A model generated the notes under the pieces. It saw nothing but the letters and a program-made list of their open reading frames with translations, did no database searches and had not been told where the DNA came from. A program made the position numbers and the translations under genes. A stretch of DNA of 39,673 nucleotides from a virus. Taxonomy: Duplodnaviria; Heunggongvirae; Uroviricota; Caudoviricetes. The DNA is taken from IMG/VR virus record IMGVR_UViG_3300045988_165115. One strand, 5' to 3'. Below are positions 5,564-39,112 of this stretch, piece after piece. How positions within the stretch are numbered: the stretch's first letter is position 1; the number at the start of each line of letters is the position of its first letter.

Positions 5564-6930
5564 TGCACTGGCACCTTCAGAGGGATCACCGGCACAAAGC
5601 CGGGATGCGTAATGGCATTACGCCGGATAATGTCCGCGTCACGCGCCGCGTTATCAAACCAGGTCGCCGCCAGCACCAGCGCGGGTAAAACCTCATCCGG
5701 CGTGCGCTGAATGATCCGTGCAGACTGTTCAAGGCGCGTGTTGATATCCGCATTCAGATCTGCTTTCACCCGGCGCAGCGCCAGAAACAGCGCATCACTG
5801 GTTGTACGGGACAACTCCTTATCAATTGCCGTATTCAGTGTGTCGCGAATGTCAGTCAGTTCTTCCCACGTCGGCAGGTCAACCGTGCTTTTCACCGCCG
5901 GTGCATTGTTCAGTGCCGGATGCGTGACGGAAGGCCAGCCAGTGCTCTGCGCGGGTGTTGTTGCCTGCCCCACTGCGGCATTCTGCATCACCGCGGAAGT
6001 TGTTGGCGCAGGCAATCGGGTAACGGCATACGCCGCTTCGCTGATTGCAGTCGTACGAAGGGTGCTGGCAACCACGTTACGCTGCTGCGTCGCCGTGGCG
6101 GTGGTTTTACTGTCCGTTTTCCAGACGCCGCGCGGTTGCAGATCGCTGCCAAGGCTGACACCAGAAAGCGTTTTGATCATGGTGACCAGGTCGCTGGCGT
6201 TACCGTAAAGGCGTTTCCCGGTACGCCACATTTTCTGCACCTGCTCAACGAAATTTTTGCCTGACGATGGTGGCGGCAGAAGTACCGAGATATCCCCCTG
6301 CAACAGCCTGGCCGCATCCGATACGGCAGAATCCACCACTTTCATCGCATCAGAAACATACCCAAGCATTGTGCTGACATTACCAACGACGTCGTTCTGC
6401 ACAAAATCCGCCACGCCATCGATACTGAAACCGCTGAAGCTGTCACTGATGCAGTCATCCAGTGCAGAACAGGATGACATCAGCGTCTGCGCCGTCGCCG
6501 CACCTGATATGGGGTAAGAGAGCTCTCCTGCTTCGACAAACTTTAGGTCAAAGCGGACAATACGCCCTTCACTTTTCGATGTGCTGACCCGAACTTCCCC
6601 GTCAACACAGACTTTCAGCTCACCGTATGTCGGATGGACAAGCGTGCCGGGACCGGGTTTATTCAGCGCGTCAATCAGGCGATCGCGCTGGTCAAAGCAG
6701 TCATCTCCCACCACATAAGCCGTGATGGACGGGCGGAAAGTGATTTTCCCCAGGTCTTCGGTATAGGGTTTGTCGCGGTTCGGGTATTCGTGCGTTTCCA
6801 CACGACGACCGGTTCCCGCACTTTCTTCTTCAACCTTAAACGGCACACCGCGAAATGACGCGTCCTGAAGTCTGTCTTTCCACGTCATATAAACTCCGTA
6901 CATAAAAAATCCCACCGGAGTGGGACTCAT
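5560..6930 (-). CDS. DNA circulation protein (Mu gpN family); real start possibly the internal MTWKDRL
   Basis: N-terminal motif WKDRLQDASFRGVPF...GRRVETHEYPNRDKPYTEDLGK is characteristic of the DNA_circ_N domain; follows the tape measure gene. Confidence 0.75.
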   Translation of the reverse strand: MSPTPVGFFMYGVYMTWKDRLQDASFRGVPFKVEEESAGTGRRVETHEYPNRDKPYTEDLGKITFRPSITAYVVGDDCFDQRDRLIDALNKPGPGTLVHPTYGELKVCVDGEVRVSTSKSEGRIVRFDLKFVEAGELSYPISGAATAQTLMSSCSALDDCISDSFSGFSIDGVADFVQNDVVGNVSTMLGYVSDAMKVVDSAVSDAARLLQGDISVLLPPPSSGKNFVEQVQKMWRTGKRLYGNASDLVTMIKTLSGVSLGSDLQPRGVWKTDSKTTATATQQRNVVASTLRTTAISEAAYAVTRLPAPTTSAVMQNAAVGQATTPAQSTGWPSVTHPALNNAPAVKSTVDLPTWEELTDIRDTLNTAIDKELSRTTSDALFLALRRVKADLNADINTRLEQSARIIQRTPDEVLPALVLAATWFDNAARDADIIRRNAITHPGFVPVIPLKVPVQ

Positions 6931-21619: not shown

Positions 21620-22795
21620 ATGGATATAACTTGTTTAGAATGTGGCAATGTTCTTGACGACCCAACTGTAGCTTGCGATAAATGCGGTGCCACGCCTCAT
21701 GTTGTAGTGCTGGGCAAACAATCGTACTTTCCTATTGGTGCTGTAACAGCAAATCTTGAAAAAAATGATTCAAGAGCATTTGATTATCGATTAGGTGAAG
21801 TTTGGGATCTAAAAAATGAAGTCACATCTGAATTCATAACCAGAATTGAGAAAAAATTTAGCCGAAAAAACAAATTTCATAACTTCCTAGACTCAGATCA
21901 CAACCCTTCATCCATTCCTACGATCCTAAAAAAATACATTAATAAAAATAATGAATTCATTGATTTATCTAGAGCTATAATAGAGAAGCTTAAACATAAT
22001 GCTAATAACGAATCGAGAGTTGCCCAACTTCAGGGGGGGAGCGTTGTTTTCATCCACTATAAGTCTACCGAACCAGAGGATTTGGGGAAACTTCTAATCG
22101 TAATGGTTGATAAACAAAGCGCCTATGACTTTGATTCGGATAAGTTGACCCCAACAAGATTAAATCCAATTAATACCGATGCCTTACGGCAGGCTGCGAT
22201 GTTCGATTTAACTTTATTCGAAGCCAGTTATCCAGAAAACAAGGGTGACTCATATGTACATTTCTTGCAAGGTAAATCTAAAAGCGATTTTTTCAAAGAC
22301 TCATTAGGTTGCCGACATGATTCGGACAATAAAAGAAGCATTCAGCAATTATTCAGTGCTATAGATATTTTTGCTAGTAAAAACTCACTCGGTCGTGTAC
22401 TGCGTGATACTATTGACAATGAAGTTAAATCCTTACTGGAAAAAAAATCAAAAGATAAACACGGAAATAAGTCCGTTAAGATAGAGGATATTTCAAAAAT
22501 AATTGACTCATGCCTGACTGATTCACACAAATGTAAGGGAACGTTTGTCGATTTTGTTAATCTTAATGGTTTCCAGATTGACCCTCAATTTGAACCAACT
22601 CCTAAAGCAGCTGAAAGCGCGCTTACAATTGAAGTGGCAGATAACGACAATAATTTTAAGTTGAAAATAATGCGTGGAGCTATTGGAGACGAAAAGTCAA
22701 ATAAGCCTGTAATTCTCACTGACAACAAATGCGAAATTGTGATAAAATTGAGTCAGGCAAATTATGATGAACTCAAAAGATATAGAGACAGCTAA
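21620..22795 (+). CDS. zinc-ribbon plus NdpA/YejK-like (NA37) nucleoid-associated-protein-like domain protein; first gene of the cargo operon
   Basis: N-terminal CxxC-x12-CxxC; central region (GGSVVFIHY...LNPINTD...DLTLFE...YVHFLQGKS...DFFKDSLGC) follows the YejK/NdpA motif pattern as recalled; AT-rich; opposite strand to the late genes. Confidence 0.55.
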   Translation: MDITCLECGNVLDDPTVACDKCGATPHVVVLGKQSYFPIGAVTANLEKNDSRAFDYRLGEVWDLKNEVTSEFITRIEKKFSRKNKFHNFLDSDHNPSSIPTILKKYINKNNEFIDLSRAIIEKLKHNANNESRVAQLQGGSVVFIHYKSTEPEDLGKLLIVMVDKQSAYDFDSDKLTPTRLNPINTDALRQAAMFDLTLFEASYPENKGDSYVHFLQGKSKSDFFKDSLGCRHDSDNKRSIQQLFSAIDIFASKNSLGRVLRDTIDNEVKSLLEKKSKDKHGNKSVKIEDISKIIDSCLTDSHKCKGTFVDFVNLNGFQIDPQFEPTPKAAESALTIEVADNDNNFKLKIMRGAIGDEKSNKPVILTDNKCEIVIKLSQANYDELKRYRDS

Positions 22796-22797
22796 TA

Positions 22798-24012
22798 ATG
22801 ACAATTGCTGATGACTTATCAAGATTAGCGCAGATTATTAACGGAGCCTCAAGCAGAGTTGAGGGCTACTACACTGTCATAAGTCTTGAAGAAAGCATTG
22901 TTATTGTAAATAGTTCTGAAATAATTAGACTGTTACAATCTATAGGTTATAAAAAGGCAACAACCTGCATCGAAAATAATGAAATTTGGCTAGATCGCCA
23001 AGCTTCATCTTGGGATGATGCTATAATTTATGAGAATGTTGAGTCTTTTTGGTCTAGAGTAAACACCCAAAACGCTCTTCCGAAAAATTATATCATCGGA
23101 ACGCCGTTAATACTCCCTACTTCTAAGAATGAAAGCATCGAAAAAATCCATATTTTCTTTATGTGGAAAGATATCCTTTCATTAATTTCTGATCATCATA
23201 ACAGTGACTGCTCTGTCTTATTTTTCACCAATGAAGACAAAAGTTATACAGTCGAACTCACGCATTTTTTACAATATAGCGAGATTAATCGCTTATCGAA
23301 CTCGTCTCTTAAATATGAAATTATAAAGGAGCTTCTCGACACAATAAAAATCAATGATTTACACAAAAGCGAGCGCAAGCTCGTTATACGCTCAGCCATA
23401 AACGAAGTATTTAAAGCAAATGGTACGTTCAATTTCTTTGACTTGCTTAACTCTACTGAACTCGTCAGGAAAAAATATGATGAACTATATGAGATTTACA
23501 CAAAGAGGTTTTCTGTAAATAAAATTCTTAACGAACTCGATGAGAAAAATCTTGAGTTCACGAGTAAAATTAACGAATTCATATCATCTAATCAGACAAA
23601 AGCATTGACTATTCCCGGTGCATTAATAGCAGCTGGTGGCTTAGTGAAGGCTAATGAAACAACCGAAGCAATATTGATTATCGCAGGACTTTGGATGATA
23701 AAAAAAGTCAATTACATTTCTATTGAGATATTCAATGAAACATTCGACAACTTACGTTCTCGAGTGGAGTCCGCTTTCGATAAGTATTTAAAGTTTGAAG
23801 AAAATAAAGAAATCAAAGATAATGCAGATAGTATTAAGAGTAGCATTACAGGTTTGATTGATAAAGCTAAAAAAAGGATGAGAACTGTTAAATATCTCGC
23901 ATCAGCCATGTTTTATGGAGGCCTTATTTACGTTGGATATAAACAGTTCCCAGTCTTTTTTGAAAAATCGGCAGTAAATCTATTTTATTTTTTATGCCAT
24001 ACTATAAGCTAA
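22798..24012 (+). CDS. hypothetical membrane-associated protein, second gene of the cargo operon
   Basis: 404 aa; ATG 2 nt after the upstream stop; hydrophobic segments LTIPGALIAAGGLV, AILIIAGLWMI and YLASAMFYGGLIYVGY; 3' end overlaps the Q 3' end by 21 nt. Confidence 0.55.
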   Translation: MTIADDLSRLAQIINGASSRVEGYYTVISLEESIVIVNSSEIIRLLQSIGYKKATTCIENNEIWLDRQASSWDDAIIYENVESFWSRVNTQNALPKNYIIGTPLILPTSKNESIEKIHIFFMWKDILSLISDHHNSDCSVLFFTNEDKSYTVELTHFLQYSEINRLSNSSLKYEIIKELLDTIKINDLHKSERKLVIRSAINEVFKANGTFNFFDLLNSTELVRKKYDELYEIYTKRFSVNKILNELDEKNLEFTSKINEFISSNQTKALTIPGALIAAGGLVKANETTEAILIIAGLWMIKKVNYISIEIFNETFDNLRSRVESAFDKYLKFEENKEIKDNADSIKSSITGLIDKAKKRMRTVKYLASAMFYGGLIYVGYKQFPVFFEKSAVNLFYFLCHTIS

Positions 24013-24363
24013 CATTGCTAAACAGCCATCAACAAACCCCATTGCAGTTTGCAGTTCCTTCCTAATTGTGCCATCAGAGCATTTTCTCTTCTTCGCAATA
24101 GTGCGTAATGAGATACCGATAACAAAGTGGGCGATGATGAGCTCATATTCCTCTGGTTTATACCTTCTCAACCGAGCCACACAACTGTCTATCATGATGC
24201 CTTCGTCATCATCACACTGAATCCGTGACTTTTTGCCATGAGGTAAAAGTCCCTTGAAACCAGCCGCTATCGGCTGCCAGTCCACTCCGCTATTGTCTGA
24301 AGCAGCCCAAGCTCCCCAACGATCCATTACTTCATACATATCACGCATCAACTTTCTCCACAA
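23992..24363 (-). CDS. late-gene antiterminator Q
   Basis: 123 aa; ...MDRWGAWAASDN...WQPIAAGFKGLLP...CDDDEGIMID...CSDGTIRKELQTA... matches the Q (QuuD-like) family pattern as recalled. Confidence 0.75.
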   Translation of the reverse strand: MWRKLMRDMYEVMDRWGAWAASDNSGVDWQPIAAGFKGLLPHGKKSRIQCDDDEGIMIDSCVARLRRYKPEEYELIIAHFVIGISLRTIAKKRKCSDGTIRKELQTAMGFVDGCLAMLAYSMA

Positions 24364-25362: not shown

Positions 25363-26160
25363 TCAATGAACGGTATCGAGTAGCTTTAACAGCTCAGGGA
25401 ATCGGGATTCGAAGAAATGCGGCTGCGTCTCGCGCGGATTTGCGGGACTGGTGATGTTCTTGCCGAACATGCAGCCTTTCGCCGTCAGCGACCAGAATTT
25501 TTTGATGTTGTTAATCGCGGTACGGCTGTATCGTTCGCGCTGCTCGACGATCCCCAGCTTCACCATCTGGTGATATGCCTGATTAGCTGTCAGGCGGATA
25601 CCATACTGCTTCAGCAGTGCACTCAGTGACAGCGTGGGGCGGCTTGAGCCATCAGGCGCGTCAGCAGGAGCATCAATGGCATAGCGCGGTGCCAGATTCG
25701 GTAAGCCAACAGCCTCCTGGAGTTTCTGACAGGCTCCAAGCACTGAAGAGTTAGACAGATTTAACTCCCGGCGCATAAAGTCCAGCAGAATCACGCCAGC
25801 CTGCATCTTGTCAGCAGCCTGTCCGGATAATTTTTCAGGTGCGCTGGTTACCATGTCGAAAGTACGGATCACCTTCAGATGGAATGACGGGCTGATCCAC
25901 ATTGCATAGGCATACACCAGTTCTTTGCAGACATACGTCCCCTGGTTATTTCCGCCACGAATAACGTTAACTGGCTCTATATTGACCGAGTTGCAAATCT
26001 GCAACTCGCTTATTAAACGTTCAGTTTGCTCATTGCGGAGCCAGAATGCAGGCTTATGCTTATCCAGAGAATCGGCAGCCCTGTGCAGATCGTTCAGGCT
26101 GTAACGACCATAAGCATCACGACGAACTTCAATACCATCAATGACCATCAGATTATTCAT
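25363..26160 (-). CDS. KilA-N domain protein
   Basis: N-terminal MVIDGIEVRRDAYGRYSLNDLHRA... fits the KilA-N pattern; nin-region position. Confidence 0.5.
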   Translation of the reverse strand: MNNLMVIDGIEVRRDAYGRYSLNDLHRAADSLDKHKPAFWLRNEQTERLISELQICNSVNIEPVNVIRGGNNQGTYVCKELVYAYAMWISPSFHLKVIRTFDMVTSAPEKLSGQAADKMQAGVILLDFMRRELNLSNSSVLGACQKLQEAVGLPNLAPRYAIDAPADAPDGSSRPTLSLSALLKQYGIRLTANQAYHQMVKLGIVEQRERYSRTAINNIKKFWSLTAKGCMFGKNITSPANPRETQPHFFESRFPELLKLLDTVH

Positions 26161-26179: not shown

Positions 26180-26569
26180 TCAGGCGGCTGCACCCGCCGG
26201 TTTCTCGTACTTACTGATAGTGATCTCAACCTTCCCTTCCGGGATAACCGGTCCCCACTCCACCAGCATTCTTTTCACCTGACTGTCGTCTTCCCACACA
26301 CCCGCGTGGGTCAGGGCGTCAAACAGCGCCTTGTTATAGTTGTCCAGATCGCGGATCCGGTTATCCGGAGGAAACAACACGATCTCCACTGAAGCAGGTG
26401 CCGACGTTGGTTTCGGCAGACGACGTAACTGCTCAACTATTGCTGCGCACGCCGCGCTCTGAAATTTTCGCCCCGCCTCGCTTATCAGGCTCTTACCAGC
26501 AAATGCCCCTTTGTTGGGGTGTCGCCAGTACGTGTTCACACTGGGCGGGAAAGGAAGGATCAACTTCAT
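26180..26569 (-). CDS. rusA: RusA-family Holliday junction resolvase
   Basis: 129 aa; motifs PPSVNTYWRH and RDLDNYNKALFDALTHAGVWEDDSQV match the RusA family. Confidence 0.85.
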   Translation of the reverse strand: MKLILPFPPSVNTYWRHPNKGAFAGKSLISEAGRKFQSAACAAIVEQLRRLPKPTSAPASVEIVLFPPDNRIRDLDNYNKALFDALTHAGVWEDDSQVKRMLVEWGPVIPEGKVEITISKYEKPAGAAA

Positions 26570-26892
26570 ACTTTCAGGCCCCTCTCATGTAACCAGTGGG
26601 CTGCACGCAACCTAGCGTTCTCCTCAGCGGCAAGCAGTGCGCGGATGATACCGACCGCTTCGCTGTCGTCGTCCTTCACTGCGGTATGAAGCGTGATCCC
26701 CCGGGCCACGCCACGCTTTATCGTGATGACGCCTTTTTTCTCCAGTGCGCGAAGATGCTCCACCGCTGCATTCACTGAACGGTATCCCAGCATGGTTGCC
26801 ACCTCCTGATTGGTTGGCGGGAAGCCACGTTCTTTCTGGTAAGAAATCAGCATATCCAGCACCTGCTGCTGGCATTGAGTTAACGTCGTCAT
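26566..26892 (-). CDS. LexA N-terminal DNA-binding-domain-like protein lacking the S24 peptidase domain
   Basis: LTQCQQQVLDMLISYQKERGFPPTNQEVATMLGYRSVNAAVEHLRALEKKGVI closely parallels the LexA winged-helix domain; only 108 aa, no Ser/Lys peptidase region. Confidence 0.65.
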   Translation of the reverse strand: MTTLTQCQQQVLDMLISYQKERGFPPTNQEVATMLGYRSVNAAVEHLRALEKKGVITIKRGVARGITLHTAVKDDDSEAVGIIRALLAAEENARLRAAHWLHERGLKV

Positions 26893-27542
26893 GCCGCCAT
26901 CTCCCTGACCAGTTTTTCCGCCTGCTGGCGAACCTGTGCCAGAAAGGCCTCACCACATGCCTCAAGTTCATCGCGCCCGATGTAGCTGATTGCCGGTCCC
27001 TTCCAGGTCTTGTCGAAAACAGCAATAGCACCAGCGAAGAAAGCGCCTGTCGGCACCTGCTTCTCATCTTTCGGGATAAACCAGGCAGGCAGTTCAAAAC
27101 CAATACGCCCGCGAATAAAAGCAATATGGTCTGCATCTTCCGGCCACCACACTTCGCTGGTGGCAGCTTTGATCAGGAAAACATAGCGCCCGCCTTTATC
27201 ACGCATGGCACCGGCATGTTTCATGATGTAACGCATGCCGGTGATGTATTGCCCCTCATGCTGACTGGCGCGACTGTATGGGGGATTACCAAAGGCAGCA
27301 CCTTTAAGCTCCGCAAGACGTTCTGACCAGTCATGCGCCAGCGCGTTGTCTTCCGCCGTGTAATACGCGGTACATTTGGCGTTATCACCGTCAGTAAACA
27401 GATCCAGGACAAACGGGCCAAACAGGGTGTTAATTCCCCAGAAAATGTTATCCGGCGTGCGCCACTGATCGCCCACTTCCTTCAGTTCATGGGCTGGTTT
27501 GTTCCGCAGTTCCACCAGCGCCCGGCAATATTTATTACTCAT
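26889..27542 (-). CDS. phage DNA N6-adenine methyltransferase (Dam-like); start set to the internal MSNKYCR
   Basis: NPPY catalytic motif (GNPPYS); TAATG stop/start overlap with the upstream gene at 27542. Confidence 0.75.
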   Translation of the reverse strand: MSNKYCRALVELRNKPAHELKEVGDQWRTPDNIFWGINTLFGPFVLDLFTDGDNAKCTAYYTAEDNALAHDWSERLAELKGAAFGNPPYSRASQHEGQYITGMRYIMKHAGAMRDKGGRYVFLIKAATSEVWWPEDADHIAFIRGRIGFELPAWFIPKDEKQVPTGAFFAGAIAVFDKTWKGPAISYIGRDELEACGEAFLAQVRQQAEKLVREMAA

Positions 27543-28036
27543 TAAGCCCCCACGTAATTCCCTGACAGATACCACTCTTCACCCGATGCAGCGCGCTTGC
27601 TGCTTTTCCGTAAGCACCGCTCACGACGTGCCAGAAAATTGTTTCGTTCTGGCTGGGAGTGGCTTTCACGGAATGCCGCCATCCACACGGTTGCAGCACG
27701 ACGGTATAAGCCCCTTGACTCCAGTTCTTCAGCCTGGCGGGTCAGGCATAAAATCACCCGGGGATCGTTAGTGCCGACATAGAAATTGCGCACAGGTCTG
27801 GTTTCACGAACTGGTTGTGGTTCCGGCTCCTGCGCTCTCTCAGTCAGGCGCGGGAAATGTCTGCGTGTATCTCCTTCACAACGGTGAGCCACACGCCCAC
27901 TCTGACGTAACTTGCTTGCTGACTGCAGAACGCGCTGCCGTGAGTAACCTGCAAAAGCATCCGCAATGTCTCCGGAAGTACAGCCCGGATGGGCTTCAAT
28001 GAATTTCTGAACGTCATTCAAAAGACTCATGCTCAC
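27542..28036 (-). CDS. hypothetical regulator, winged-helix-like N-terminus and PerC-like C-terminal segment (tentative)
   Basis: 164 aa; C-terminal LESRGLYRRAATVWMAAF resembles the PerC family signature as recalled; overlaps the replication gene stop. Confidence 0.35.
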   Translation of the reverse strand: MSMSLLNDVQKFIEAHPGCTSGDIADAFAGYSRQRVLQSASKLRQSGRVAHRCEGDTRRHFPRLTERAQEPEPQPVRETRPVRNFYVGTNDPRVILCLTRQAEELESRGLYRRAATVWMAAFRESHSQPERNNFLARRERCLRKSSKRAASGEEWYLSGNYVGA

Positions 28037-28974
28037 CCCCTGAATCCTGCCGGGATCTGGCTGTAGTCCACATTGTCGTAACTGGCTTTGAAGTACGGGT
28101 CTTCGCGTTTTTCTGTGTACGTGCTGACGGACGGCGATAAGCGCAGGGAAAGCTCATCCCATTTTTCCCGCAGCTTCGACGGGCTGAGCACGTTACGGCA
28201 CCAGAACGGATCGCGGCTGACGCGGCTGTACATCTCGCAGATTTGTTTGTGAGTACGACCATCCTGCACACACATCAGGCGAATTTCGTTTGCCCAGGCT
28301 GTCCAGTTCGGTTCTTTGGGACGAACCACCTCGCCGTCACATTCGGCAGCCTGCTCGTACAGGGCGATGATTTTTTTCCAGAGCCACTGTGCGCAGGTCA
28401 AATCATCCTGCGTCCCCCACTGGCGCTTTTTAGGGCTGAATACAACCGCATCAGGATGGCGAGTTAAAAAATCCTGTTCAGCCGTCTGCGTGTCCGGTTG
28501 CGAAGCGTCCGGACGAGAAGTTTTTTTATCTGACGGATCATGTTTTGATTTTACTGACGGATCCCCGCCAGATTCTGACGGGTGAAAACCCGCTTTTTTG
28601 CCAGATTTCGACGCATCAAATTTTGACGGGTCAGATTTTGATGCGTCAGATTTTGACGGGTCAGAATCTGACAGTTGAGAAAATGCCGCTGCCTGAAGCT
28701 TCGCAACGTTAAGCTGATAAACATTCGACGCATTGCGGTTACCCTGGCGACGCGCCTTACGCGTTAACCAGCCTTCTGCTTCCAGCCGTGCGATAGCCGT
28801 TCTGACGGTACTCATCCCCGCGCCAATCTGACGGGCAATGGTTTTAATTGATGGCCAGCACACACCTTCGTCATTACTGAAATCAGCCAGGCGGGCCATA
28901 ATTGCCACGCTGGATAACTTCATGCCTGATGCAGCGCAACCATCCCATACATAGCCGGTTAATTTAGTGCTCAT
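28033..28974 (-). CDS. replication initiator / replisome organiser (lambda O-like) with internal iterons
   Basis: 313 aa; winged-helix N-terminus, a central SDPSKSDASKSDPSKFDASKS repeat encoded by the DNA iterons, and a conserved C-terminal domain. Confidence 0.7.
   Translation of the reverse strand: MSTKLTGYVWDGCAASGMKLSSVAIMARLADFSNDEGVCWPSIKTIARQIGAGMSTVRTAIARLEAEGWLTRKARRQGNRNASNVYQLNVAKLQAAAFSQLSDSDPSKSDASKSDPSKFDASKSGKKAGFHPSESGGDPSVKSKHDPSDKKTSRPDASQPDTQTAEQDFLTRHPDAVVFSPKKRQWGTQDDLTCAQWLWKKIIALYEQAAECDGEVVRPKEPNWTAWANEIRLMCVQDGRTHKQICEMYSRVSRDPFWCRNVLSPSKLREKWDELSLRLSPSVSTYTEKREDPYFKASYDNVDYSQIPAGFRG
28528..28678. repeat. iteron array, putative replication origin inside the initiator gene
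   Basis: At least six direct repeats of about 15 bp, consensus CAGATTTTGACGGG, at 28569, 28601, 28616, 28631, 28646 and 28661, the last four with a 15-bp period. Confidence 0.7.
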
Positions 28975-28983
28975 GACCGACCT

Positions 28984-29322
28984 CTATTTCCCTGAATTTA
29001 CGACGAAACTGTTCGAGCGGACTGAAGCATTCATGCTCATAACCTTCGCGGAGGTAGATAACCCGTTGTGTTTCCGGCTCCCAACGAATGACTCTGACGG
29101 GCACTCCGTAGTGATCTTTGAACCAGCGGTTAACTTGTCGCAAAGGACTGTCTCCTTCTGCCGGTTGAAATCACCCACAGCCCACTCTGCAAAGCTGTGG
29201 GTTACAATTTCCCTGTCACCTGGTACATTCACTGCATAGCAATATTCCACCTTCGCTTTTCCACCCGGTACCGGAAGCGCAATCAGTTGCGAGCGACGGT
29301 AGTGTGTTGTTAAACTGTTCAT
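28984..29322 (-). CDS. hypothetical early-operon protein, positional equivalent of e14 ymfM
   Basis: 112 aa between the YmfL-like gene and the replication initiator. Confidence 0.4.
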
Positions 29323-29876
29323 GCGTTAGTTTCTCCACAACCAGAAGCAATCGACGCCACGACGCCCGGAGCTGCACACTCGCGGGCGTCATTACTTTCT
29401 GAAATGCAAAAAATTTTGTAGACAAGTGCTGCATGCTCCTGCAGCTTCGAAATTGAGAGATACAGCTCGTCGTTAATTGCTGTCTTCTCATGCGGTTCCA
29501 CTACACCGTCTTCGATTGCTGAACGAATCTGTTTTGAATAACTGCCGATCTGTTCAATGACTTCCAGCAGACGCTGGTTAATATCGGCGTTGTCCACATC
29601 CTCGACGTCAGGAAGAGACACAAAGACGCCATTTGCAGACTGCGCCACAGCATCAGCAATGAAGTGAGTGCCACCAGCACGCTGTAAAACCATTGCCCAT
29701 CCCAGCGGGAAAATCTGATCGCCATCTGCACGAAGGCGGTTGAATAAAGCGTTTTCTGTTACATCGAGCCAGTCAGCCGCTTCAGCGTAACCACCCGGCA
29801 ACGCCGCGATAGTTTTTCTGACAGCTTTCACGTACCACTCAGGCTGTTTTTCTATTTTCCAGTGATGCTTACCCAC
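29319..29876 (-). CDS. hypothetical early-operon protein, positional equivalent of e14 ymfL / lambda cII
   Basis: 185 aa directly downstream of cro with overlapping stop/start. Confidence 0.45.
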
Positions 29877-30129
29877 GGTTCACCTCCTGTTCCTGTGGTT
29901 TAAACCCATTCTGATTTTGGCTAGATTGAAAACGTGCCGGATAAAGAATCTGCATTTCGCTGACTTCACCCTTAAAAAAATTGGCTAAACGTTCTGCAAG
30001 CTCGATAGATGGAATCTGCTCCAGCCTCTCAATACGACTCAACGTCGCTGGATTGACTTGAACACCCGCAGCAACATGCTGCAAAGTGAAACCATGCGCC
30101 TTACGCACATTTCGTAATGGTGATTGCAT
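29869..30129 (-). CDS. Cro-like HTH (XRE-family) regulator
   Basis: 86 aa; helix-turn-helix LQHVAAGVQVNPATLSRIE; divergent from the cI-like repressor across a 97-bp operator region. Confidence 0.8.
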   Translation of the reverse strand: MQSPLRNVRKAHGFTLQHVAAGVQVNPATLSRIERLEQIPSIELAERLANFFKGEVSEMQILYPARFQSSQNQNGFKPQEQEVNRG

Positions 30130-30226: not shown

Positions 30227-30919
30227 ATGAACATAGGAAACCGAGTCAGACAACTTCGCCAAGCGAAGAACATGAAAATCGCCGATCTCGCTGAAGCAAT
30301 AGGAGTAGATGCGGCGAACATCTCGCGCTTAGAAACGGGTAAGCAAAAACAATTTACCGAACAAACACTGAGTAATATTGCCAAGAGCTTAGGTGTTGAT
30401 ATTGCTGATCTCTTTACCTCTGCCCTCAAAAGTAATACTGTATATAAAAACAGTAATAATGAGGATGTTGCGCAGGTGAAGGATGTGTTCCGTATTGAAA
30501 TGCTGGATATCAGTGCCAGTGCGGGAAATGGCCTTATCCAGGGCGGTGATGTCATTGATGTGATTCATGCCATCGAATACAGAACTGATAATGCTGTATC
30601 AATGTTCGGCGGACGACCAGCCAATCACATCAAAGTTATCAACGTTCGTGGGGACAGTATGTGTCCAACCATTGAGCCAGGAGATCTCATCTTCGTTGAT
30701 GTCAGCATCAATCAGTTTGATGGTGATGGTATATATGTCTTTGGTTTTGATGACAAAATATACGTTAAAAGACTTCAAATGATTCCTGACAAACTGCTGG
30801 TGATTTCTGATAACCAGATTTACCGTGAATGGGGAATTACTAGCGAAAACGAACACCGATTCATGGTCTTTGGAAAGGTCTTAATCAGTCAGTCGCAAAC
30901 CCTTAAGAGACATAATTAA
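30227..30919 (+). CDS. CI-like prophage repressor (HTH_XRE plus S24 LexA-like autopeptidase)
   Basis: N-terminal HTH (NMKIADLAEAIGVDAANISRLETGK) and C-terminal S24 motifs (GDSMCPTIEPGDLIFVD ... KRL). Confidence 0.9.
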   Translation: MNIGNRVRQLRQAKNMKIADLAEAIGVDAANISRLETGKQKQFTEQTLSNIAKSLGVDIADLFTSALKSNTVYKNSNNEDVAQVKDVFRIEMLDISASAGNGLIQGGDVIDVIHAIEYRTDNAVSMFGGRPANHIKVINVRGDSMCPTIEPGDLIFVDVSINQFDGDGIYVFGFDDKIYVKRLQMIPDKLLVISDNQIYREWGITSENEHRFMVFGKVLISQSQTLKRHN

Positions 30920-34021: not shown

Positions 34022-34282
34022 ATGAGGTTATCAAAAATGCTTCAAATGCTGACACTTGAGGAATGGGCTGCGGAAAAATTTAGGAGTAATCCTCCAAGTG
34101 TGTCCACATTGCGTCGTTATGCTAAGCAGAATTTATTTTGTCCACCAGCAATGAAACAAGGTCGACTCTGGCGAGTACGTGAGGACGCAGAGTTAGTTGG
34201 GGAATTAGTTACTCCAGTAATCAAGAAAAGTGATTCTATTATTCTGCAAAGGATTTTAAGCAATGGCAGCCAGACCACGTAA
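34022..34282 (+). CDS. xis: excisionase (lambda Xis-like); start uncertain, alternative ATGs at 34037 and 34046
   Basis: LTLEEWAAEKFRSNPPSVSTLRRYAKQNLFCPPAMKQGRLW parallels lambda Xis; overlaps the int start. Confidence 0.7.
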   Translation: MRLSKMLQMLTLEEWAAEKFRSNPPSVSTLRRYAKQNLFCPPAMKQGRLWRVREDAELVGELVTPVIKKSDSIILQRILSNGSQTT

Positions 34283-35390
34283 AAATAATGTTTCAGTACC
34301 TAACTTGTATCCGCTTTATAGTAGAAAAGTAAATAAAGTCTATTGGCGATATAAGCATCCAGTGACCGGGAAATTTCATTCGTTGGGCACAAATGAAGCT
34401 GAAGCTATTGCTATTGCCACTGAAGCTAACACTCGTCTGGCTGAGCAAAGAACCCGGCAGATTCTAGCTATCAGTGATAGGATCGCAACCAGCAAAGGAA
34501 AAGCGATCACAACGTCAACCTGGTTAGATCGCTATCAAGCGATCCAGGATGACAGGCTCAAAAGTGGTGATATAAGACTCAACACCTATAAGCAAAAAGC
34601 TAAACCAGTATCCTTGCTCAGAGAACGAGCAGGAATGAAGTTGATCTCATCCGTTGATGTTAGAGATATAGCACAATTGCTTGATGAGTATATTGCAGCT
34701 GGACAGCCTAGAATGGCCCAAGTCGTTAGGTCTGTATTGATCGATGTGTTTAAGGAAGCACAGCATTATGGCGAAGTTCCGCCAGGGTATAACCCTGCTC
34801 TTGCGACGAAGCAACCCAAAAGAAAAATTACCCGTCAACGCCTCAGCCTGGAAGAATGGCAAAAAATATTCGATATAGCAGACGCCAGTCATCGTTACAT
34901 GGGAAATGCCATGCTCCTAGCTTTGGTCACTGGGCAGCGTTTGGGAGATATATCCAAAATGAAATTTAGTGATATTTGGGAAGATCATCTTCACGTCATT
35001 CAGGAAAAGACTGGAAGCAAAATCGCTATCCCTCTTTCTCTTCGCCTCAATGCGATTAACTGGAGTTTACGCGATGTAATAGCCCGCTGCCGTGACTATG
35101 CAGTCAGCCCATACCTAGTGCATTTTTTCCGTTCAACTTCACAAGCAGAACGTGGGGCACAGGTTAAATCCAATACATTGACGATGAACTTTAGTAAAGC
35201 GAGAGATTTAGCAGGAATTGACTGGGGTGATGGCTCACCCGCAACATTCCATGAACAAAGATCGTTATCTGAACGCCTGTACAAGGAGCAAGGGATAGAT
35301 ACCAGAAAGCTACTTGGGCATAAAACACAACAACAAACCGATCGTTACCATGATGACCGAGGGAAAGGTTGGAGCAAAGTAGCTTTGTGA
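34263..35390 (+). CDS. int: tyrosine site-specific integrase, lambda Int family
   Basis: 375 aa; catalytic-region motifs (LALVTGQRLGDISKMKFSD; HEQRSLSERLY; LLGHKTQQQTDRYHDDRG) align with lambda Int. Confidence 0.9.
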   Translation: MAARPRKNNVSVPNLYPLYSRKVNKVYWRYKHPVTGKFHSLGTNEAEAIAIATEANTRLAEQRTRQILAISDRIATSKGKAITTSTWLDRYQAIQDDRLKSGDIRLNTYKQKAKPVSLLRERAGMKLISSVDVRDIAQLLDEYIAAGQPRMAQVVRSVLIDVFKEAQHYGEVPPGYNPALATKQPKRKITRQRLSLEEWQKIFDIADASHRYMGNAMLLALVTGQRLGDISKMKFSDIWEDHLHVIQEKTGSKIAIPLSLRLNAINWSLRDVIARCRDYAVSPYLVHFFRSTSQAERGAQVKSNTLTMNFSKARDLAGIDWGDGSPATFHEQRSLSERLYKEQGIDTRKLLGHKTQQQTDRYHDDRGKGWSKVAL

Positions 35391-35600
35391 GCGTTTAAGT
35401 TTCTCAATCCCACATTAATTATCTCATCACACATGTAACAGGCCAAACAGACTGCTCTGAGCGACGAACCGTTGTTGACCAGTAACGCCATAGAGTATAT
35501 TCAGTAAGTGTTCCAATGTATATAAGAAATGCGCTGTGTATATTTTTAATTCAAAATAGTTTGAAGCACAATCATGAAACAGATTCTTATGAATACAAAA

Positions 35601-38770: not shown

Positions 38771-39112
38771 GTATCCCCCATGAAAAACTATAAAAATTTA
38801 GGTAGTGTGCTTTATATTATTACAGTAATTGTAAATTACCGATATAGGATATCAACCTTCCTGTGATCTAGGTCACTCAGGATGAGCAACTTCCTATTGA
38901 TTAGGATTCAAAATGTTTGAAATGTGCGCTTACAGAACCACAGGCCACTTTGAGCGAAGAACAGACCTAAATATAAACGAGGGTTAATCAGCAATAATTA
39001 TAATAAACTGAGGTATGCCTAATTGGAACTTGACAATATAACTACCATCTCTCCCTAAACAACTAGGAGTTTTGATAACTTATTTTGATAAAATTTTGAT
39101 AACCGTTAGCAG

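Follow-up and report, generated by a model that had tools for sequence, protein, structure and literature searches.

Does a repeat array inside the initiator gene of a prophage serve as that prophage's own origin of replication? The question is raised by IMG/VR virus record IMGVR_UViG_3300045988_165115, a stretch of 39,673 nucleotides (hereafter the window, by which we mean the whole stretch that was analysed), which is a near-complete SfII/SfIV-like lambdoid prophage. A preliminary description of this DNA had reported, within an O-like gene, at least six copies of a repeat of roughly 15 bp that encode an SDPSK/SDASK peptide, and had read them as the iterons of an origin built by the logic of ori-lambda with an iteron sequence of its own. 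The best explanation of our results is that the locus is the origin module of an SfII/SfIV-type lambdoid prophage, laid out on lambda's plan, in which the binding sites of the initiator are contained in its own gene, where the linker between the two domains of the protein is encoded. We give this reading a probability of roughly three in four. Every computationally testable part of the earlier interpretation is supported, with several corrections of detail that we state where the evidence for them is given.

The repeats are recovered by three different procedures. Tandem Repeats Finder reports an array at 28602-28665 with a period of 15 bp in 4.3 copies (81% matches), and also with a period of 30 bp in 2.1 copies (88% matches). 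The motif CAGATTTTGACGGGT, when up to 3 mismatches are allowed, has seven matches in the 39.7-kb window compared with 1.16 expected, and none of 100 shuffles reached seven; six of the seven matches fall within the 102 bp from 28569 to 28670. A repeat-family search finds six copies, separated by spacings of 33, 15, 15, 15 and 15 bp. The six or more copies first described are therefore present, and so is the strict 15-bp period, which is kept by five copies and not by four as originally counted.

In the sense of the gene each unit reads TCT GAC nnn TCA AAA and encodes S-D-(P/A)-S-K, and the repeats as a whole encode SDSDPSKSDASKSDPSKFDASKS in the minus-strand frame of the initiator, as the earlier peptide reading had it. 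The conserved part of the unit is an 11-bp imperfect palindrome, TCARAWTYTGA (TCARAWTCTGA in gene sense), which is combined with a 4-nt variable spacer; that is, each repeat has an internal dyad symmetry. The 39.7-kb window contains the degenerate form of the core motif in four places, all of them inside the array. The six cores correspond to residues 102-135 of the 313-residue protein, and several direct repeats thus lie within the interdomain linker. The early region contains no other repeat cluster, the remaining tandem arrays that Tandem Repeats Finder reports for the window being weak, of two to three copies, and located elsewhere. No sigma-70-like promoters are found in 28000-29400, and there are no DnaA boxes in or beside the repeats, the nearest boxes with one mismatch lying at 29331 and 29590, upstream of the gene.

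Repeats within a coding sequence may be maintained for the sake of the peptide or for the sake of the DNA, and the two can be told apart by the choice among synonymous codons. We drew 80 loci from contigs representing one genome per species, which gave 79 distinct genes including that of the window; the genera sampled are many within the Enterobacterales, for example Citrobacter, Kosakonia, Buttiauxella, Yersinia, Pantoea, Rahnella, Proteus and Providencia. Codon usage in the 356 repeat units of these 79 genes was compared with a background consisting of the rest of the same genes. The first serine of the unit (codon 1) is encoded by TCT in 85% of cases, compared with 10% in the background, and the second serine (codon 4) by TCA in 86%, compared with 16%. 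Lysine is AAA in 99.6% of cases (background 63%), and aspartate is GAC in 82% (background 44%). The middle codon of the unit, by contrast, is free to encode Ala, Pro, Thr, Gly, Val or Arg. The same phylogeny provides a control, for at the invariant residues of the N-terminal domain (N-domain) the mean fraction of the major codon is 0.55, and the serine columns use up to six codons.

A similar constraint is seen in the roughly 60 nt that follow the array, whose gene-sense sequence, TTTTsACCCgnCAGAATCTGGnGGGGATCCGTCAGTAAAtTCAAAAcaaGATCCAtCAG, is kept in all genera, third positions included. In this conserved element third positions carry 1.47 bit of information, compared with 1.57 bit for first and second positions and with 0.66 bit for third positions in the N-domain; pairwise identity at third positions is 0.78 in the element and 0.47 in the N-domain. 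Furthermore, the word TTTTsACCCnnCAGAATCTGr is translated as G-F-H-P-S-E-S-G in the window and as V-(L/F)-T-(L/R)-Q-N-L in phage P27 and in a second locus, L159. Since the reading frame differs while the DNA word is kept, a purely peptide-level explanation is excluded. Nor does protein structure explain the conservation, because residues 103-166 are predicted to be disordered (AlphaFold2; predicted local distance difference test score, pLDDT, <50). Among 80 near-identical IMG/VR copies of the locus, the spacer codon is where amino-acid changes are concentrated, and the number of repeat units differs by -2 to +2. By all of these comparisons, the repeats, the palindrome beside them (Table 1) and the A-rich element are seen to be under purifying selection as DNA. 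The locus is a clear example of dual coding, in which a constraint on DNA dictates the linker peptide and different phages translate one word in two frames. This DNA-level constraint, together with a position in the linker that is the same as in phi80, supports the idea of an ori-lambda-like logic with a different iteron.

The interval originally assigned to the origin, 28528-28678, is correct for the repeats, and its left part, 28528-28563, turns out to belong to a different element. This is a conserved stretch, A-rich on the gene strand, which we regard as a candidate DNA-unwinding region. It includes two CTGACGGATC words (28530-39 and 28554-63) that are 24 bp apart, GATC at 28536 and 28560, and a degenerate core at 28538-48. 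The GC content of 0.325 over 28520-28559 is the minimum of the region 27800-29200, and this minimum, which spans 40 bp only, lies downstream of the repeats in the direction of transcription. The Asp-Pro codons of the element are written GATCC, which contains a Dam site: the first is so written in all homologous genes examined (L088-L167), and the second in most, a few having GAACC. Aspartate is therefore GAT in the A-rich element, in contrast to GAC in the iterons. Of 76 homologous loci, 56 have an adenine methyltransferase gene at most four open reading frames (ORFs) from the initiator, and such a gene is present in 53 of the 66 loci that have no helicase loader, compared with 3 of the 10 others. 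Shared ancestry and lambdoid gene order confound this association, which we treat as a lead only; a link between the Dam gene and the conserved GATC pair of the putative origin, confounded by shared ancestry too, is speculative.

Other features at this site are of lesser weight. Resemblances in the A-rich element to an integration host factor site and to the 13-mers of oriC were noted by eye only and are not kept across homologues, and we have dropped them. A terminator-like hairpin, CGGGTGAAAACCCG, with a T-run after it is antisense to the initiator gene and lies at 28579-28592 on the plus strand, the array being on one side of it and the 19-bp palindrome on the other; its stem varies in homologues, and we do not count it as a conserved feature. 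The Proteus homologues L158, L160 and L163 have three copies of a 24-bp GATCCACAAGTAAATTCAAAACAT unit at about nt 435-530 of the gene, and in L158 the conserved palindrome word GGTTTTCACCCTCCAGAATCTGG is duplicated at a spacing of 33 bp. These three loci also encode DnaC-like and DnaB-like proteins.

If the array is an origin, one would like to know whether it is inherited together with the protein domain that would read it. The N-domain, the repeats and the A-rich element are found fused to at least four unrelated C-terminal domains (C-domains), namely a lambda-O type, Phg_2220_C (PF09524), a P27 type and a Proteus type, with the breakpoint just past the A-rich element, at about residue 160 or nt 28495. 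As these sequences show, the N-domain, the repeats and the A-rich element are inherited as one block whatever C-domain follows, and such joint inheritance of an origin and its reading domain is the pattern classically seen in lambdoid phages. When 78 close relatives are scanned for the core pattern, most have at least two cores at the exact 15-bp spacing; the exceptions, with fewer pattern matches or other spacings, are loci of the Providencia/Proteus type, Rahnella loci and L165. The core is near-invariant in this close family despite N-domains that diverge to about 60% identity, and for that reason a search within the family for covariation between recognition helix and iteron core found none.

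More distant initiators with the same type of N-domain, HTH_36 (35-45% identity), each have three to four dyad-symmetric repeats of their own, which in all four cases checked start where the part of the gene that codes for the winged helix ends. The repeat is GGGGTGGGGCAGGAGCTGCCC in Stx2a_F403, TATGCCATC..GATGGCAC in RothC (Klebsiella), AGGTATGCCAGCAGATAGCACAGG in S1249 (Aggregatibacter) and CCTAGTGACAAAATGTCACC in Vibrio D67. The period of these repeats is 21-24 bp, and the 15-bp period is therefore peculiar to the subfamily that includes the window. Of 5426 complete E. coli genomes, 2107 (39%) have the module itself (28480-28980), and RefSeq labels the protein there just 'helix-turn-helix domain-containing protein'; the module is also found in prophages of many Enterobacterales genera. 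Since its core is common to so many genera, the iteron defines a replicon family, and not, as had been proposed, the replication specificity of this phage alone.

The initiator protein combines an N-domain that is not of the lambda O family with a C-domain that is homologous to that of lambda O. Pfam assigns residues 23-70 to HTH_36 (PF13730; E = 7.4e-11, 42.1 bits against a cutoff of 25), and PHROG assigns the protein to family 391, 'replication initiation O-like' (E = 2.9e-135); the gene has 98% DNA identity to that of SfII, whose record bears the label 'O protein family protein'. The Pfam scan finds no match in the initiator to PF04492 (Phage_rep_O), to which phi80 gp15 is matched with E = 6e-25 in a like scan. 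An AlphaFold2 model, built on an alignment of 21 sequences, predicts an N-domain of helices and a beta-hairpin wing (H3-16, H20-31, H43-50, H54-66, E70-74, E84-88, H90-99) and a confident helical domain at residues 189-278, with pLDDT values of 80-92 in the C-domain. In a Foldseek comparison with the PDB the N-domain matches only MarR-like winged-helix proteins, and those weakly (best E = 3.4e-3), and the C-domain has no match in searches of solved structures and folds. At the sequence level, tblastn aligns residues 131-277 with lambda O (35.6% identity, E = 1e-18), and BLASTP aligns residues 169-278 with residues 176-275 of phi80 gp15 (36% identity, E = 4e-25). By analogy with these proteins, the C-domain would be the part that recruits the helicase. 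The gene is O-like in architecture and in its C-domain only, its N-domain being HTH_36; to that extent the name it had been given is justified.

It had also been remarked that no obvious gene for a P- or DnaC-like helicase loader follows the initiator, and the remark proves true of the whole window. A search of the neighbouring ORFs with hidden Markov model profiles, as the preliminary description had suggested, revealed no such loader: the PerC-like, Dam, LexA-DBD (DNA-binding domain), RusA and KilA-N proteins include no homologue of P, DnaC or DnaB by Pfam, PHROG or NCBIfam, and ten further ORFs outside the structural-gene region (in the early-left operon, at the integrase and near Q) include none by PHROG. 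When P, phi80 gp14, DnaC-like and DnaB-like proteins are compared with the whole window by tblastn, nothing better than E = 0.26 is obtained. Among the 76 homologous loci a loader or helicase is encoded in only 10: lambda P in L165 and L128, and DnaC-like and DnaB-like proteins in those of the P27/Proteus type. We considered the PerC-like gene next to the initiator as a hidden obligatory loader and rejected it, as its cluster has 23 members, the window copy included, which is less than one third of the 76 loci; this neighbour has no relative in the PDB. The most economical view would be a direct use of host DnaB-DnaC, in the manner of the Rep proteins of iteron plasmids.

These elements suggest how the module might operate. 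Following transcription from pR, the winged-helix domain would bind the cores and build a nucleoprotein complex like the O-some, in which the 15-bp spacing would place adjacent sites on roughly opposite faces of the helix. The initiator complex would then destabilise or open the adjoining A-rich element, and the C-domain, being of the lambda O / phi80 gp15 type, would recruit the host DnaB helicase. Because the phage has no P, DnaC or DnaB gene, recruitment would presumably proceed by direct contact with host DnaB-DnaC, or else through an unrecognised partner. Transcription from pR through the origin may help it to fire, as it does in lambda. Since the gp15-binding sites of phi80 lie at the matching position of their gene, the repeats are homologous in position to an annotated origin; from the sequence comparisons taken together we infer that the initiator binds the array and that the array functions as an origin, and the origin reading appears to us well supported.

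Several observations nevertheless weigh against an origin at this site. As far as we have searched, the literature contains no binding or replication experiment for this initiator family, and the searches turned up no component for the step of helicase loading. Covariation between initiator and iteron is visible only in comparison with the more distant relatives. The A-rich element is short and, at the GC content given above, its AT-richness is moderate. The 15-bp period is unusual, both when compared with the 21-24 bp of other HTH_36 initiators and with the roughly 21 bp of phi80. Finally, alleles with a collapsed array, in which one or two cores are left (P0015, P0017, P0019, P0032, P0064 and P0068), are common in databases, P0032 occurring on 128 Salmonella contigs. 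These alleles have apparently arisen by recombination between cores, and either they belong to defective prophages, or the full array is dispensable and a minimal origin is enough.

Some of the same observations bear on a different reading, in which the sites are bound by the initiator or by another protein for purposes of regulation (autorepression, a roadblock to the pR transcript, or handcuffing that controls copy number), and the true origin is elsewhere. Conservation at the DNA level shows that there is a function and not which one, collapsed arrays are common, and the iterons of plasmids also serve autoregulation and handcuffing. We nonetheless think this rather improbable: the early region has no second repeat cluster that could be the origin, the array agrees in position with the annotated origin of phi80, and the sites are adjoined by a conserved A-rich element on the same side as in lambda and phi80. 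Moreover, regulatory and origin roles are not mutually exclusive.

A quite different possibility is that the DNA sequence has no role at all, the array being a low-complexity Ser/Asp/Lys linker that was generated by slippage and owes its regularity to recent expansion and homogenisation. Such a history would fit a linker that is predicted to be disordered and whose copy number changes in steps of five residues among close relatives. It would not lead one to expect that TCT and then TCA for serine, AAA and GAC are kept across genera in which the synonymous sites of the N-domain are randomised, that the amino acid of the middle codon is free while the synonymous sites on both sides of it are fixed, or that the neighbouring word stands in a different frame in P27 and L159. 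Codon choice, the N-domain control and the change of frame thus largely refute this reading, and we consider it very improbable. Synonymous conservation alone cannot separate RNA from DNA, and one may ask if the constraint acts on the mRNA, as a structure or a ribosome-pausing signal that tunes translation of the initiator, and not on the duplex; the single strand does fold better than shuffled sequence (z = -4.6). This predicted fold is, however, a direct consequence of the palindromic repeats. Copy number and register vary freely among relatives, which would break a specific RNA structure, in distant relatives other repeats occupy this place, and dyad-symmetric tandem sites beside a winged-helix domain are the classic pattern of protein binding. 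We therefore attach hardly any credence to a constraint on mRNA.

The reading that we prefer, an in-gene origin on lambda's plan, leaves room for a bolder version, in which the origin is independent of a loader and gated by methylation. That is, the C-domain, although of a type that normally needs P, would recruit host DnaB-DnaC directly, the GATC pair would act as a SeqA/Dam checkpoint that the phage's own Dam overrides for rapid refiring, and the 15-bp phasing would produce a filament shaped unlike the lambda O-some. We regard this version as unlikely. If it were true, the commonest prophage replicon of E. coli (39% of complete genomes) would use a mechanism that is absent from the model phages. 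The variant features on which it draws, namely the 15-bp phasing, the absent loader and the conserved GATC pair near a co-transcribed Dam gene, are worth testing.

Table 1. Positions of the initiator gene, its putative origin and the neighbouring genes in the window.
Feature	Position	Strand	Remarks
cI	30227-30919	+	
cro	29869-30129	-	early-right operon
cII-like	29319-29876	-	early-right operon
DUF4222 protein	28964-29143	-	early-right operon; 59 aa; Pfam E 8.6e-19; annotated by RefSeq
Initiator, 313 aa	28033-28974	-	early-right operon; from ORF list and Pfam/PHROG
N-terminal winged-helix DNA-binding domain (aa 1-99), presumed reader of the iterons	28678-28974	-	HTH_36 and AlphaFold2
Tandem iteron array, five units, strict 15-bp period	28601-28676	-	gene-sense unit TCT GAC nnn TCA AAA
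Core TCAGAATCTGA	28661-71	+ (reading)	perfect TCAGA-W-TCTGA dyad
Cores TCAGATTTTGA	28646-56 and 28631-41	+ (reading)	
Core TCAAATTTTGA	28616-26	+ (reading)	
Core CCAGATTTCGA	28601-11	+ (reading)	
Sixth core CCAGATTCTGA	28568-78	+ (reading)	33 bp from the array
Near-perfect 19-bp palindrome CCCGCCAGATTCTGACGGG	28564-28582	.	contains the sixth core; kept in every homologue examined
Conserved A-rich element, candidate DNA-unwinding region	28522-28563	.	gene strand A-rich; from GC content and codon-position conservation
C-terminal helical domain (aa 169-278), lambda O / phi80 gp15 homologue	28141-28470	-	tblastn, BLASTP
PerC-like / YfdN-like protein, 164 aa	27542-28036	-	Pfam PerC E 7.9e-9; PHROG 1324 'transcriptional activator'
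Dam-family N6-adenine methyltransferase	26889-27575	-	second gene downstream of initiator; Pfam Dam E 4.6e-45
LexA-DBD protein	26566-26892	-	early-right operon
RusA	26180-26569	-	early-right operon
KilA-N	25363-26160	-	early-right operon

The genes around the initiator are listed in Table 1. The segment 27500-29400 has 98% DNA identity to Escherichia phage Kati, to PhiR49_1 and to Shigella phages SfII and SfIV. The PerC-like gene, which we include as context, occupies the place that P has in lambda. The 59-codon DUF4222 ORF upstream of the initiator overlaps, in another frame, an ORF of 112 codons on the same strand (28984-29322), which is SfII_40 in the SfII record; probably one of these two public annotations is wrong.

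Elsewhere in the window, two co-oriented genes at 21620-24012 (+) run opposite in direction to the genes beside them; they are situated between the lysis region and Q (23992-24363, -). The first encodes an NA37/YejK-like nucleoid-associated protein of 391 residues (PF04245), and the second a protein of 404 residues (phrog_5023) that has no Pfam or PADLOC match. The pair looks like a moron or a possible defence pair. Beyond the integrase gene (34263-35390) there are weak tandem arrays at 35395-35434 (period 20, 2.1 copies) and 39070-39103 (period 11, 2.8 copies, TTTTGATAACAA), which may be features of the attachment site or of the host flank.

The genome paper on SfIV makes no mention of an origin, and the paper on the Eru replication regions has no text on repeats or an origin for this type, although older papers could still have noted the repeats. 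The iteron (TCARAWTCTGA at a 15-bp period) combined with the conserved element provides a rule by which a very common prophage replicon can be annotated. With the same definition one can predict whether co-resident prophages and serotype-converting Shigella phages are incompatible in replication or activate one another. The module is, in addition, a compact test case for a lambda-O-type C-domain that works without P.

How does this module compare with known systems? Its likeness to ori-lambda and O, and to the six-iteron variants of Stx phages, is one of plan: the iterons lie in the initiator gene, in the linker between a DNA-binding N-domain and the C-domain, the sites are dyad-symmetric, an A/T-rich stretch, which in the window is only a candidate for the unwinding region, is on their downstream side, the gene follows cII in the pR operon, and the C-domain is homologous. 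It differs in its N-domain (HTH_36, PF13730, where lambda has Phage_rep_O, PF04492), in a period of 15 bp with an 11-bp core, compared with lambda iterons of roughly 20 bp (PMC8022706), in its lack of a P gene, and in a strongly conserved element with GATC beside the sites. In-gene iterons are textbook knowledge for lambda, phi80 and P22. Iterons within the gene are the accepted signature of the origin for lambda, P22 and phage L, and the origin in gene 18 of phage L was itself deduced from sequence alone, from six copies of an 11-bp repeat (PMC8022706). The gene 18 origins of P22 and phage L, like that of the window, consist of repeats within the initiator gene, each with its own sequence; those phages encode a DnaB-type helicase of their own (gp12), whereas the phage of the window encodes neither helicase nor loader.

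Among the relatives examined, the closest C-domain is that of phi80 gp15 (JX871397), and the elements follow one another in the same order, with binding sites first, an A-rich stretch second and the motif FL(S/T)xHP(E/D)A last. In the phi80 record, four gp15-binding sites are annotated at residues 121-147 of gene 15 and are followed by an A-rich stretch and FLSTHPEA; in the initiator of the window the repeats are followed by the A-rich element at residues 136-153 and by FLTRHPDA at residue 169. The phi80 sites differ in being four sites of 15-16 bp at a spacing of about 21 bp, with an unrelated sequence (TTCCCGAAAACGG-like), the N-domain of gp15 is PF04492, and gp14, a P homologue, comes next. 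Just upstream of the C-domain, the linker of phi80 gene 15 (L087, ~6793-6813) contains TCTGACGAATCCTCTGACGCA, with two TCTGAC words that resemble a half-site of the window iteron; these words may be left over from domain shuffling in the past, or may be due to chance.

The family of the N-domain is shared with the HTH_36 Rep proteins of Paracoccus plasmids (PMC3832669). It is shared also with the initiators of Stx2a_F403, RothC, S1249 and Vibrio D67, in which repeats directly follow the winged-helix part, as they do in the window, although their repeats are 21-24 bp apart and of unrelated sequence, and RothC and S1249 retain a P-like loader. In iteron plasmids, such as those with pSC101 RepA, R6K pi, F RepE or RK2 TrfA, a winged-helix initiator binds tandem direct repeats by an AT-rich region and uses host DnaB/DnaC, with no loader of its own. 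Plasmid iterons are longer (about 17-22 bp) and are located outside the rep gene, usually beside DnaA boxes, whereas the sites of the window are in the gene and have a 15-bp period; and RepA, pi and RepE have a pair of winged helices, WH1-WH2, where our model predicts a single winged helix, a disordered linker and a helical domain. With these differences in mind, iteron plasmid replicons would seem to be the best functional analogy for the loader-less state of this prophage.

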